Source: Candidatus Jordarchaeia archaeon
GTDB taxonomy: Archaea > Asgardarchaeota > Jordiarchaeia > Jordiarchaeales > Jordiarchaeaceae
Direction: 5' to 3'
DNA length: 36,210 bases
Assembly (NCBI GenBank): GCA_029856435.1
Contig: JAHQXB010000073.1
Span: forward strand, 1-36,210
Part shown: one piece after another, positions 239 to 35,879 of the stretch
Layout: the number at the start of each line of letters is the position of its first letter
Position numbering within the stretch: position 1 is the first letter of the stretch
The notes under the pieces: model-generated
What the model was told of the DNA's origin: nothing
Database searches by the model: none
What the model saw: only the letters and a program-made list of their open reading frames with translations
Position numbers and translations under genes: made by a program

Positions 239-426
239 CTCCAGGCGATAGATTCGCAAAATCTCGTGTTTTTGGGCCTTTTTTTGGCGCTTCTCAAAAC
301 TGTTTCTCACCACTTAAAAGGTAGAAATATTAAAAATTGAGGAAAAACACCGATAAAACCATAAATTATCAGGGAACATAACGGCAAAAAACCATAGCAA
401 AGATCCTGCGAATCTATCGCCGGGAG
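239..426. repeat. 26-bp imperfect inverted repeat (arms 239-264 and 401-426)
   Basis: CTCCAGGCGATAGATTCGCAAAATCT matches the reverse complement of AGATCCTGCGAATCTATCGCCGGGAG at 23/26 positions. Confidence 0.85.
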
Positions 427-7938: not shown

Positions 7939-8475
7939 ATGAAAAGCCTAGGATTCGTTTTCAAAATAGTCGTAGTGGGCGACGGAGCAGTAGGAAAAAC
8001 CTCCTTAATCAAACAGTGGACCGAAGGTTCATTCAGAACAGACTACATCATGACGATTGGTTCAAACTTTGCTGTTAAGAGCTTGGTTATTGATGATAAG
8101 CCTGTTAAGTTGCAGATTTGGGATTTGGCGGGTCAGCCGCATTTTAGTGACGTTCGGGTTTTGTTTTATAAGGGTGCTATGGGCGCAATGTATGTTTACG
8201 ACGTGAGCCGTGTTGATAGTTATGATAGTGTTCTTAATTGGGATAGAGAGTTGACTAATATTTGTGGCCAGATCCCAAAGGTTTTGCTTGCGAATAAGGT
8301 GGATTTAAACGATCAGCGTAAGGTTAGTTCTGAGATGGGTAGCGTTTTGGCAGCCAAGTTGGGCGATGCTCCGTATTTTGAAACTAGTGCGAAGTCTGGT
8401 GTTGGTGTGAATGAGGCTTTTGAGAAAATTGCCCAGCTTGTGTACGAGTTGGCTAAGAAGAGGCAGCCTGCCTAA
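7939..8475 (+). CDS. Rab/Ras-like small GTPase
   Basis: G1 GDGAVGKT, switch I TIGSNF, G3 WDLAGQ, G4 NKVD, G5 ETSAK. No C-terminal Cys prenylation motif. Confidence 0.96.
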   Translation: MKSLGFVFKIVVVGDGAVGKTSLIKQWTEGSFRTDYIMTIGSNFAVKSLVIDDKPVKLQIWDLAGQPHFSDVRVLFYKGAMGAMYVYDVSRVDSYDSVLNWDRELTNICGQIPKVLLANKVDLNDQRKVSSEMGSVLAAKLGDAPYFETSAKSGVGVNEAFEKIAQLVYELAKKRQPA

Positions 8476-8587
8476 AATTGTGATTTTTTGAAGCCCTTTT
8501 TTGGTTTGACTGTTTCTATATTTGTTTTTTGTTAAGCTGTTGTGTTTGGGATTTTTTGTGGCATCTTATGCCCTCGAATGCTAGGGG

Positions 8588-8900
8588 TGTTAAAACTGCT
8601 TCTATTTTGGAATAAAGCTTGTTAACCTGAGAAATTTCCAACTGTTAACATTAAAGAAAAACCATTAAACCCATCATTCTTCAAAAACAACCACACATAC
8701 ATGTGCCGTGCAGCCGACTCCAGCCCGGAATGCGGAAGGCTCGAAAAAGCCAATGAGGGCAGGGCCACAACTGGAAACATTCCCCACCGAAAGCAAGAGG
8801 GATGTGCCATTTCAACCGTTTCCCTAGCGAAAACCTTCCCGTGAAATTTAAGGGAGGAAGAACCAAAGTTAGGCAAGGTTAACGCTGGGTCAGAACGGTT
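8588..8900 (+). repeat. Copy 1 of a ~310-bp dispersed element (inverted relative to 32956-33265); candidate promoter plus structured ncRNA
   Basis: Alignable end to end with the reverse complement of 32956-33265. The block 8636-8702 is identical at 65/67 positions; the GC-rich 3' part is more diverged but keeps its stems. Confidence 0.92.
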
Positions 8901-8927
8901 CCTCTGTTTCGTTTGAGAGCGTTGCAT

Positions 8928-9188
8928 TCACCAAGTTTTCCGTCGCCGCATATGTGTAGGGCTGTGATTTTTAAGGTGTTTGCGCAGTGGTAACATTCGT
9001 ATGCATACTCCACGTTGGATACCTTTTTTTGAACTGTTGAGCGATATTACGTATTTTTCTATGGGTATCCTTCCGCACACTCCGTATGCGTAGATTATTT
9101 CGTCGTAGATTACTGTGGTGGGATATCCACAGTTGGGGCATTTTTTTATGAGGGGGTTTGGTGTAGGCGCCGAAAAAGGTTTTAGCAA
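8928..9188 (-). CDS. Possible small Cys-containing (Zn-ribbon-like) protein
   Basis: CPNC motif plus two later Cys residues; TTG start; short ORF. Confidence 0.4.
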   Translation of the reverse strand: MLKPFSAPTPNPLIKKCPNCGYPTTVIYDEIIYAYGVCGRIPIEKYVISLNSSKKGIQRGVCIRMLPLRKHLKNHSPTHMRRRKTW

Positions 9189-9619
9189 TTAATTTTTGGT
9201 GGTAGGTGCACCATTTGCATATTTCATATAGGGATGCTTTCCCAGTTTGGATTGTAAATTATTTGGGAGGTGTTTTGCATTATGGCTTTTCTCCACATCA
9301 TATGAACCCCTATTGTGGGGCTTTTACATGTTGGTTTGTTCCCTTATATGGGAGGTATACGTTTTGGACTGCCCAACACTTAAATCTATATGAGTGAACC
9401 AGATTTTTTGTGGTGTGCCAGAAAGCAATTACACCCAGAACTGGCTGAAAAACAAGCCCAACAAAGCCCAATAAACCACATCTCCCCAGATAACCACAAC
9501 TGAGAAAATGTACAAGTTGAAACCCATATGTTTAAACAATACTCCGGGGGCTGAATTTTTGTGGTGACCTTGCCTTTAGCCTGCCTCCGCGTCCCCTCCC
9601 ACCTCCATTTTTTACACTA

Positions 9620-9653
9620 AGGTGTTAAAAAGTGGGAGGTGTTAAAAAGTGGG
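9620..9653. repeat. Perfect 17-bp tandem repeat AGGTGTTAAAAAGTGGG x2
   Basis: Units at 9620-9636 and 9637-9653, preceded by an imperfect inverted copy (CCTCCATTTTTTACACT). Confidence 0.85.
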
Positions 9654-9819
9654 GAGATGGTTTCTTTCAAGCCAGCCACAAAAACAGATCCCTACAAATA
9701 GGAGTGCTGCCTAAATATGTGGTATTTTTGGGTTTTTGACTATTTAAGTCCACTTATTTTGAAACTGTTGCAAAAGGCGTCCCCTTTCCTTGGTTTTCCC
9801 TTTTTTCTCGGTGAATGAT

Positions 9820-31386: not shown

Positions 31387-32925
31387 GTGGATCTCGCAGA
31401 TTTCATGTCCAAGGGATTAGTGGTTAAACCAGCGGCAGAATTCATCAGCCCCTCCGTAGATTACGACTTACTACTGGGAAGAGTAATTGAAACAGAAACC
31501 TACAAGGAAGATGTGGACGTAGGACTAAAAGTAGAGCACTTGCACAGGGGCATTATGGTTGCGGGAGGAAGCCAAGATGAACGTAACGCCACCAACCTAA
31601 AAATCATCTTTGAAGCTTCCAACTTTTCGTGGAACTACCTAATGGTGGATACAAAGAATCAACTTAGAAAACTAGTGAAGTTGAACCCCGAAACACGCGT
31701 ATACCCCAGCAAAAGTATATGCATAAATCCCCTCGATCCAGAAGACTCAAGCATTTCCGAATACATTTCCCTGCTGCTCCAACTATTCCAAATCCTATGG
31801 AACCTCACAGACAGGCAGAGCATCTGTTTAAATGAAGCATTAAGGAGCGTCTACGAGAAATACGAGAATGCCACCCCCACCCTTGAGGATTTGAGAAACG
31901 CCTTAATCAGTCAGAGTTCGTCCAAACTAAGAACCCCACAGGAGAGAAGTGAAATAGAAGGAGTGATACGAAGCATAACAGGATTACTTGTTTCTGAAGA
32001 ATCTCCAACAATAAATGGGCGCTCCACAATGCCCTTCGGAGACCTCACAACCAACCCCACGATTATTGAAATAACATCGAAAGACCGCCATTTTTCGTGC
32101 TTCCTAAAGGGTTTGATGATAGTAAAAGCCCTGGCCACCGATACGAAAAGATATTCCATATTTATCGACGATGCTGAGGAGATTTTCAAAAACATACGGT
32201 TTGGGTGGAAAACACAACAAGTCTATTTCCAGGAACACCTAACAGGATGGGTGGAAAGCCTAAAGGGAATGAAAGTGGGATTACACATTTCAACCAGTCT
32301 ACCCAGACTAATCTACGGCCCGGTTCGCCCCCTGATAGAAACCCAAATATTCCACAAACTAGTTTCAGGCGAAGACATCGACGCAGCAGGAGACTTATTG
32401 GGCCTAGAGGAACACGCACCAGGTATACACTCCGATAAAAGGGAAAGACTCTACCAAAAAACCTACCTCAAATACCTAAAAGAGGGAGAAGCCCTTTTCC
32501 ACAGACCAGACCTGCCAACCGGATTCCCCATCAAAATACACTACCCCACACTGGTATTCTCAATGCCGCCCTCAGACCAAGAAATAAAAATTAGACTCCA
32601 AGATCTTTATCCTCCCCAAAACGTCAACCTCCCAGAAAGCTTACCATCCACCACGCTTGAAAGAGATTTGAAAAATGAAAGCGAACACGCCGCAGAAATA
32701 CTGCAACTACTCCACGAATACCCCCAACTCTCCTCAACAAACATAGTGCTAAGCCTAAAAATGGAGGTGGAACCAGAAAAAATAAGGTATCTCCTCGAAA
32801 AGCTCAAGGAACTAGAATACCTCAAGGAAAGACTAGAAATCTGGAAATCAAAAACAAAAAGGGTATACTCCCTAACACTAAAAGGAGAACAAGCCCTAAA
32901 AGAATATACAGAATCCAAACATTGA
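31387..32925 (+). CDS. HerA/VirB4 (DUF87)-like P-loop-fold domain with degenerate Walker A and a C-terminal wHTH; probably the C-terminal part of a ~815-aa frameshifted gene
   Basis: LLLGRV, LHRGIMVAGGSQDER, LMVDTKNQ, INPLDP, IFIDDAEE, TQIFHKL, LKEGEALF; C-terminal LEKLKELEYL...YSLTLKG. Confidence 0.85.
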   Translation: MDLADFMSKGLVVKPAAEFISPSVDYDLLLGRVIETETYKEDVDVGLKVEHLHRGIMVAGGSQDERNATNLKIIFEASNFSWNYLMVDTKNQLRKLVKLNPETRVYPSKSICINPLDPEDSSISEYISLLLQLFQILWNLTDRQSICLNEALRSVYEKYENATPTLEDLRNALISQSSSKLRTPQERSEIEGVIRSITGLLVSEESPTINGRSTMPFGDLTTNPTIIEITSKDRHFSCFLKGLMIVKALATDTKRYSIFIDDAEEIFKNIRFGWKTQQVYFQEHLTGWVESLKGMKVGLHISTSLPRLIYGPVRPLIETQIFHKLVSGEDIDAAGDLLGLEEHAPGIHSDKRERLYQKTYLKYLKEGEALFHRPDLPTGFPIKIHYPTLVFSMPPSDQEIKIRLQDLYPPQNVNLPESLPSTTLERDLKNESEHAAEILQLLHEYPQLSSTNIVLSLKMEVEPEKIRYLLEKLKELEYLKERLEIWKSKTKRVYSLTLKGEQALKEYTESKH

Positions 32926-32955
32926 TCAAAACCATACACAAAAAACTAAAACAGC

Positions 32956-33265
32956 AACCGTTCTGACCCAGTGTTAACCTCGCATAACTTGGGGTTCCCT
33001 CCCTCAAGTTTCGTACGGAGACCGGTTCGCCCCGGGGAACGGTTGAAGCAGGCACATCTCTCCTGCTTTCGATGGGAGGATGTTCCCAGTTATGGCCCTG
33101 TCCTCTTTTGGGCTTTTTCGAACCTTCCCGCATTCCGGGCTGGGCTGGAATCGGCTGCGCGATATGTATGTGTGGTTGTTTTTGAGGAATGATGGGTTTA
33201 ATGGTTTTTCTTTAATGTTAACTGTTGGAAGTTAACAAACTTTCTAATTAGAAGCAGTTTTAACA
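32956..33265 (-). repeat. Copy 2 of the ~310-bp element (inverted)
   Basis: Reverse complement aligns with 8588-8900 from TGTTAAAACTGCTTCTA to GGGTCAGAACGGTT. Confidence 0.92.
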
Positions 33266-33628
33266 ATCCAACCACAAAAATTCACTCAAAACCAAAAAAT
33301 AAAAATTCCCAATAACAATTCCACGCAAAGATTCCCAAAACATCCCGCAACAGGGCATCCGCCGTAAAAGTTTCCAAAAGTCCTAGCTGGCCACACTCAA
33401 CCACGCATCCCTCTTCCACTAATTTATATCAATCTTCCAAAAATTCTTTTTTCCCACTTTTAACGAGCTGGGCCTTTTCAAGAAAATGTAAACAGTCAAC
33501 TTCTAAAAAATTAGTGTTCTAACGTTCTTGTGTTTGTATTTTTAGGTGAAGAAATTGATTTGATTTAAAAATGAAAGGAAACTTTTTAAAAATAAGAGAG
33601 TTACTTTCTTAGAGGTTTTTGTGTTTGA

Positions 33629-34573: not shown

Positions 34574-34600
34574 CTTCTTGAAGAGAGATGCATAATGGCG

Positions 34601-34708
34601 GGTGATGTAGAATTGTTCGGTTTCGCCTCAAAAAAGGGGTGTTTATAGGGCTTCTTTCACGATTTGGAGCCTTATTAGGGAGATAGAACCGAATAAATCT
34701 GCATCACC
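34601..34708. mobile_element. 108-bp MITE, copy 1, with 10-bp TSD CATAATGGCG
   Basis: 22-bp TIRs matching at 19/22 (GGTGATGTAGAATTGTTCGGTT...AACCGAATAAATCTGCATCACC). CATAATGGCG at 34591-34600 and 34709-34718. Confidence 0.9.
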
Positions 34709-35561: not shown

Positions 35562-35771
35562 TCCACTTGTAGACTTCTTTAATTCTGGTTTCTGTTTAGC
35601 TTTTTCTATTATAATCCTACCTCCCCAACCTTTTAGCTAAATGAATATCAGACTCATTTAAATGTTTAATACGAACCATTTTTCTTATCAGATAATACTC
35701 CTAAACCTTTATTTTCGCTCTGTGCTATTATACTTTTAAACATTTTTAAAACTTTTTGGTCATCTTACCGG

Positions 35772-35879
35772 GGTGGTGTAGAATTGTTCGGTTTCGCCTC
35801 AAAAAGGTGTGTTTATAGGACTTCTTTCACGGTTTGGAGCCTTATTTAGGGAGATGGAACCGAATAAATCTGCATCACC
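35772..35879. mobile_element. 108-bp MITE, copy 2, with 10-bp TSD ATCTTACCGG
   Basis: Near-identical to 34601-34708. ATCTTACCGG at 35762-35771 and 35880-35889. Confidence 0.9.

Follow-up and report, generated by a model that had tools for sequence, protein, structure and literature searches.

The stretch of DNA considered here (the window) comprises 36,210 nucleotides from a Candidatus Jordarchaeia archaeon of the Asgardarchaeota (contig JAHQXB010000073.1), and within it lie two inverted copies of a repeat of about 310 bp. Copy A occupies positions 8587-8898 on the plus strand and copy B positions 33269-32958 on the minus strand. A repeat finder places the inverted arms at 8579-8939 and 32917-33274, and a 70-nt core arm (8633-8702 and 33164-33233) is 96% complementary between the two. 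The copies align over ~320 nt with gaps and several indels, copy B being 80% identical to copy A by BLAST. Genes between and near the copies encode a DEAD helicase, an M28 peptidase, an HTH regulator and a small GTPase of the Ras family (PF00071, 172 bits), a protein family typical of Asgard genomes; the GTPase gene, at 7939-8475 (+), is directly upstream of copy A. A scan for tRNA and tmRNA genes in the window found none. An earlier note on this DNA rightly recognised the ~310-bp repeat, and both its arms and the motifs that it quoted are present in the sequence; it had portrayed the two copies as a conserved promoter joined to a structured RNA of unknown class.

The pair stands as described, but the repeat is not confined to it. 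A genome-wide search for further copies, as the earlier note had proposed, was carried out with BLAST and nhmmer over the whole 3.54-Mb assembly (181 contigs) and recovered ~55 dispersed loci, 24 of them full length (~311-330 nt), with pairwise identities of 76-96% and a mean of 84%. When the copies are aligned together with their flanks, the element boundaries are sharp, reading ..GGGG-TGTTAAAAC.. on the left and ..GTCAGAACGG- on the right (hyphens mark the junctions), such that similarity among copies begins at ..GGGG-TGTTAAAACTGCTTCTA and ends at ..GGTTAACGCTGGGTCAGAACGG-. The family alignment displays no terminal inverted repeats in the element ends, and GTTAA(A/C) motifs recur in both of them. 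Protein coding had been judged unlikely, and comparison of copies A and B bears this out: the repeat is non-coding, with no open reading frame common to the two. The convergence of each copy with the last gene of its arm, noted earlier, is incidental, as no fixed orientation relative to neighbouring genes exists across the 24 full copies (the ORF heuristic used is noisy).

Other repeats also populate the window and the genome. A second, younger MITE family of ~180 bp, with terminal inverted repeats GCGATAGATTCGC.., numbers ~30 copies of 94-97% identity, including one at window positions 241-417 (-) and others on contigs C138 (38016-38195), C45, C22, C84, C126, C136 and C150 of the same assembly. 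In at least seven copies of the ~310-bp repeat this MITE occupies an identical position, within the GGGCGAAAGCC loop region, and does so in either orientation, which suggests that it inserts there site-specifically. A third dispersed family, represented at 9524-9727, has ~28 genomic loci of ~85% identity; the adjoining segment 9725-9788 matches short repeats in three related genomes (G001, G003 and G004), and the corresponding site in relatives carries a different insert between conserved flanks. Direct repeats at 34600-34708 and 35771-35879, spaced by 1171 bp, consist of three adjoining segments and are 93-97% identical, and short tandem-like direct repeats occupy intergenic positions 607-770 and 1357-1452 (two to three occurrences of a 52-nt unit and two of an exact 30-nt unit).

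Both window copies of the ~310-bp repeat are independent, precise insertions next to a GG dinucleotide. The flanks of copy A were searched in the five other genomes of the genus (the window's own genome being designated G000), and the copy is absent from the syntenic site in G001, G003 and G004, where a left flank of 91-93% identity abuts the right flank and window positions 8589-8896 are skipped; the empty site reads CTAGGGG-TTCACCTGTTTCGTTT (CTAGGGG-TTCACC, as read in G001 and G004). Copy B is likewise missing from its syntenic site in G001 and G003, the empty site being GGTT(T/G)GGG-TTGCTGT. Both copies were thus inserted after the split from species whose flanks are 91-95% identical, so the family, which combines dispersed copies with presence/absence polymorphism, was mobile fairly recently. 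The T-rich tract noticed earlier after each copy is indeed there, but it is no part of the element: the tracts are present in the relatives' empty sites and are therefore native target DNA.

The same comparisons bear on the proposal that the copies are old terminal repeats, that is, the inverted ends of an integrated virus, plasmid or composite transposon occupying the 24 kb from 8.9 to 33.0 kb. In favour of this proposal, the copies stand in inverted orientation on either side of divergently transcribed gene arms. However, the empty loci of A and B lie ~25 kb apart on one G003 contig (C141) and ~23 kb apart in G004 (C54), with the repeats absent and the flanks contiguous, and the 24 kb between the copies is syntenic in genomes of the same genus, constituting conserved chromosome whose genes (the DEAD helicase, M28 peptidase and HTH regulator) are of an ordinary chromosomal kind. 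With ~55 copies in 3.5 Mb, moreover, the presence of two within 36 kb is unremarkable. The absence of both copies from syntenic loci in sister species refutes the notion of old terminal repeats, and we give a 24-kb integrated element essentially no credence.

At 49 left junctions, each of the four bases preceding TGTTAAAAC is a G in 38-45 copies, and this run is preceded by T (26 copies) or A (13 copies); the right end reads ..GAACGG in most copies, and the junction logo shows a T-rich flank at positions +1 and +2. Occupied junctions of the form GGGG-TGTTAAAAC.. and ..GAACGG-TT thus stand against empty sites of the form CTAGGGG-TTCACC and TTGGGG-TTGCTG, denoting insertion at a GG dinucleotide with neither terminal inverted repeats nor a long target duplication. 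The IS607 family is defined by a serine TnpA composed of an HTH and a Resolvase domain, and the ends of the repeat are homologous to those of an element encoding just such a protein. At locus L086 of G003, a left end (GGGGGTAAAAACTGCTTCTATTTAG..) is followed by a 205-aa HTH_17 plus Resolvase reading frame (88 bits) and then by tnpB, which runs off its contig. Positions 6-57 of an HMM of the repeat match the L086 left end at 1440-1491 (E 6.6e-6), and positions 144-328 match the tnpB 3' end and right end in G003 (E ~1e-28). Further G003 copies have lost internal sequence yet retain the tnpA HTH at their start.

Both G001 and G003 additionally hold many copies of the 3' ~100 nt of the element alone. 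Upstream of this module in G003, tnpB coding sequence runs into the shared sequence (..CPECG.., ..CPKCGMEEDRDIIAVRNLL..), and one remnant reading frame (L064:5479-5814) covers the whole PF07282 (Cas12f1-like TNB) profile at 25.2 bits, against a cut-off of 26.3. The window element carries a degenerate form of the same stretch (..D/SSQSPECGK..). Judging from these alignments, the GC-rich ~200 nt of the repeat is the decayed 3' end of tnpB together with the right end, the region in which the omega-RNA (reRNA) of TnpB would be encoded; in line with such a template, homology stops at the ..GAACGG boundary.

This homology changes the reading of the RNA. A search recommended by the earlier note, against 4227 Rfam families including RAGATH-18 and HEARO, returned no match at the gathering score over the window and none at E<=10 over positions 8400-9200; no catalogued family was thereby found, but the designation of an unknown class still fails on the homology to the tnpB 3' end and right end of IS607-family elements. 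The quoted pairings, CCCG-GAAUG-CGGG included, are likewise real features of the sequence, but that hairpin is what is left of the tnpB codons for the C-P-E-C-G zinc ribbon. Where the two copies differ in ways that had looked compensatory, the changes are all one-sided or a one-base indel, and the family alignment yields no covariation. Neither copy folds more stably than its shuffles (MFE z -0.55 and -0.43); RNAalifold applied to the MAFFT alignment of these near-identical, decaying copies gives a weak consensus of -10.3 kcal/mol with a single compensatory pair; and for a hand-drawn 22-pair structure, 35 close copies have 91.8% of cells paired, compared with 92.2% in shuffles, and 0 compensatory changes. 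Lacking within-family covariation and shuffle-like in folding energy, the individual copies look like neutrally decaying DNA.

Among more distant relatives, conservation of structure is evident. The covariance model that had been suggested was built for the last 102 nt of the element (R1) and comprises a closing helix CCGUUC/GAACGG, a hairpin CCUCCC/GGGAGG and a stem GACCCA/UGGGUC with an inner GUUA/UAAC hairpin. Matches to R1 occur in 15 of 151 Asgard genomes, representing seven genera. In an alignment of 22 distinct relatives (A6), itself fitted by R1 to the model's own structure, pairing holds in 93.9% of cells and compensatory changes occur in 16 of the 22 pairs, a number that 0 of 500 shuffles reach and that compares with 3-6 in slid controls; covariation support is therefore present on this model-fitted alignment and absent within the family of miniature copies. 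For each of the nine R1 relatives tested, the match falls at the 3' end of a TnpB reading frame (six frames of ~400-437 aa, three of ~270 aa) with a TNB domain (PF07282) of 62-80 bits. This placement, combined with the covariation, identifies the 3' RNA domain as the predicted guide-proximal part of the omega-RNA of one Asgard TnpB clade. The proposal that the GC-rich half is a structured RNA has accordingly found its counterpart in a conserved structure, 'guide-type RNA' was the apt choice among the options offered, and the AACCGUU/AACGGUU helix noted earlier is the closing helix, abutting the predicted guide. A small GGC-GAAA-GCC hairpin was left out of the model, since G009 and QC4 lack it and it overlaps the CCUCCC/GGGAGG helix, which has the better support. 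We also observed that at several TnpB relatives from other Asgard genomes (L102, L106, L034, L107 and L105) stop-to-stop frames cross the omega-RNA 3' domain and continue past the right-end boundary into the flank, unlike the element of the G000/G003 type, in which a stop codon falls in the GGTTAAC hairpin.

A free-standing ncRNA family of a new class (a ribozyme, bridge RNA or replication primer) unrelated to TnpB would sit comfortably with the empty Rfam search and with a promoter-like block followed by a GC-rich, foldable part. Yet homology ties the RNA part to the 3' end of tnpB, of which codon remnants are still recognisable, the relatives of this part reside within or after TnpB reading frames at nine of nine tested loci, the copies are insertion-polymorphic with GG junctions of the IS607 type, and the loci examined showed neither an IS110-type recombinase nor a bridge-RNA context; we regard such a family as very improbable.

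The anatomy of copy A can be read accordingly from left to right on the plus strand. The target motif GGGG at 8583-8586 resembles a TAM, and its last GG would be the shared crossover dinucleotide. The left end at 8587-8640 (TGTTAAAACTGCTTCTATTT.., with GTTAA(A/C) repeats) is presumed to be bound by the serine recombinase and matches the G003 left end before tnpA. At 8641-8699 follows the most conserved block (..AGTTAACGTTAAAGAAAAACCATTAAAC..), whose mean column conservation in the family alignment is 0.93 compared with 0.82-0.90 elsewhere and which lies 60-105 bp from the element end, just upstream of the RNA region. This block is a candidate archaeal BRE/TATA promoter, and a role in driving the RNA is plausible from its sequence; it could equally represent further recombinase-binding GTTAAC repeats, which recur in the right end. 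The 5' half of the omega-RNA region (8700-8797) consists of decayed tnpB codons (..SSQSPECG.., a zinc-ribbon/TNB remnant) that align to the G003 tnpB 3' coding sequence, with the DRD..NL region shortened in copy A through deletion. The 3' domain of the putative scaffold (8798-8898), which is at the same time the right end and terminates in ..ACGG, scores 97.7 bits with R1 as a training member of that model; here the closing helix CCGUUC/GAACGG encloses the hairpin CCUUCC/GGGAGG and the stem GAACCA/UGGGUC with its inner GUUA/UAAC hairpin. The predicted guide is the 3' flank at 8899-8918 (TTCCTCTGTTTCGTTTGAGA..), native target DNA outside the element to which a guide role is assigned by analogy with the TnpB paradigm. 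Copy B (32958-33269, -) is arranged in the same way, with its left end at the high coordinate, a right end ..GAACGG ending at 32958, an R1 match of 92 bits at 32958-33061 and a predicted guide running from 32957 downwards.

Taken together, these features make it highly likely that the repeat descends from an IS607-family element and is a non-autonomous form of it, devoid of protein genes, that has kept the template of the TnpB omega-RNA. An internal deletion would have fused the final ~200 nt of the parental element to its left end and promoter-like block. Serine TnpA supplied in trans would excise and insert the derivative by crossover at the GG of (T/A)GGGG targets, and transcription from the left-end promoter would yield a scaffold of ~200 nt whose 3' end extends into the flank, endowing each copy with its own guide of ~16-20 nt. 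TnpB, again acting in trans, could then use this RNA to cut the rejoined empty site, recognised through the GGGG TAM and a match to the guide, whereas the occupied site, where the right end reads ACGG, would escape recognition; repair templated by a sister copy would then bring the element back.

Whether an RNA accounts for what the derivative has retained is best judged against the possibility of a dead MITE, an IS607 deletion derivative whose tnpB 3' sequence was kept for the recombinase or by accident, with no transcription or guide role and with a conserved block made up of TnpA-binding GTTAAC repeats. Such a reading accommodates the missing within-family covariation, the shuffle-like fold stability, the divergence of the copies (76-96% identity, mean 84%) and the GTTAA(A/C) motifs of both ends, as well as an assembly that lacks a close cognate TnpB or TnpA. 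With G003 TnpB and TnpA fragments as queries, G000 yielded only distant homologues: the best TnpB match has 33% identity (E 3.5e-5) and none is near the parental type. The nearest serine TnpA genes in G000 (C53 and C177) reach 41% identity in the HTH, and their left ends are unrelated, although with an assembly of 181 contigs an unassembled cognate TnpA copy is possible. An nhmmer --max search of 11 transposase (tnpB or tnpA) loci recovered no full-length parent in G000, and scans for the exact right-end pattern hit, in genome contigs, miniature or decayed copies from Jordarchaeia/Freyarchaeota alone and, in metagenomes, one uninformative fragment. With no close cognate TnpA or TnpB recovered from the assembly, many copies may now be inactive relics. 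Other tnpB loci of G000 (C177, C48 and C41) have weak R1 matches at the expected position (E about 0.4) and a similar architecture. A different IS607-like family is also present in G000 (C53:13500-14263, C92, C98 and C35, mostly at contig ends); its serine TnpA measures 196 aa, and it possesses a distinct conserved left end (..GCCCATGCTAACAGTTCTAAAATAGCGGTGTTTAAATAG..).

Against a dead MITE stands the extent of what has been kept. Some 40 bp of the left end and 60 bp of the right end suffice for excision of a characterised IS607 element, yet ~200 nt matching the whole omega-RNA span are retained in the copies of both G000 and G001; conservation peaks 60-105 bp from the end, shortly before the RNA begins; and mobility has been fairly recent, both window insertions postdating the split from the species with 91-95% identical flanks. 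Retention of the ~200 nt together with the promoter-like block fits a requirement for the RNA, and we consider it suggestive because excision demands so much less and because the most conserved block sits immediately before the omega-RNA span. A dead MITE is, on this evidence, a possible but rather unlikely account, and the omega-RNA-bearing IS607 derivative is the reading that we carry forward.

Relationships to known systems help to place this element. It presumably resembles the sotRNAs or TnpB omega-RNAs of archaeal IS1341-type elements, in which the RNA overlaps the tnpB 3' end and reaches the right end; those elements carry tnpB, whereas in the window element tnpB is deleted. With the IS607 family at large, whose biology has been characterised well, it shares the lack of terminal inverted repeats, the GG crossover dinucleotide at both junctions, a guide RNA that would be templated by the tnpB 3' end and right end, and a sister-species parent in which an HTH plus Resolvase tnpA precedes tnpB. 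It departs from IS607 systems in that the window copies have no protein gene of any kind, the host is an Asgard archaeon and a promoter-like block directly precedes the RNA. An IS607 TnpB with a RAGATH-18-derived reRNA has been described (PMC11061315), whereas the window RNA matches no Rfam family, RAGATH-18 included. In the Clostridium botulinum IStron, also of the IS607 family, the GG core is strict, the TGGG target is the TnpB TAM, the scaffold ends in UCGG, and position -3 tells the occupied from the empty site (bioRxiv 10.1101/2023.11.20.567912). The window element similarly has a G-rich target and presumptive TAM, (T/A)GGGG in place of TGGG, and a scaffold end ..CGG that differs from the TAM at -3 (ACGG as opposed to GGGG), but it is without the group I intron of the IStron. 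A further parallel lies with the PATEs, protein-less IS200/IS605 elements encoding omega-RNAs that are used in trans (Meers et al., PMC10055086). Like PATEs, it is miniature and non-autonomous, retains both transposon ends and the omega-RNA template, occurs in tens of copies per genome and would depend on TnpA and TnpB encoded elsewhere. PATEs, however, belong to the Y1-transposase, single-strand, hairpin-end IS200/IS605 elements, while the window element has serine-recombinase ends of the IS607 type and GG junctions.

A more far-reaching possibility is that the promoter-bearing, protein-less copies, far from being relics, are ~50 independently transcribed guide RNAs still used by a trans-encoded Asgard TnpB or a nuclease-dead relative. 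We hold this to be improbable; were it true, the guide set might help the mini-elements to be retained or to home, or might serve the host in targeting or regulating neighbouring genes, and would resemble a guide-RNA array dispersed on transposons, in that archaeal lineage which is closest to eukaryotes.

For IS605, omega-RNA elements lacking protein genes were known already; the present case is IS607-type, archaeal and outside Rfam. With a promoter-like block of its own, it carries the PATE concept modestly further, beyond IS605 to IS607 and into the Asgard archaea. A frequent, unannotated and foldable repeat of the Jordarchaeia/Freyarchaeia is explained as a known type of selfish element, and no chase after a new ribozyme or ncRNA is needed. 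The analysis also yields, for one Asgard TnpB clade, a model of the guide-proximal omega-RNA domain that covariation supports, as well as a predicted TAM, (T/A)GGGG, and ~50 natural scaffold variants that may be of interest for the mining of compact archaeal TnpB editors.
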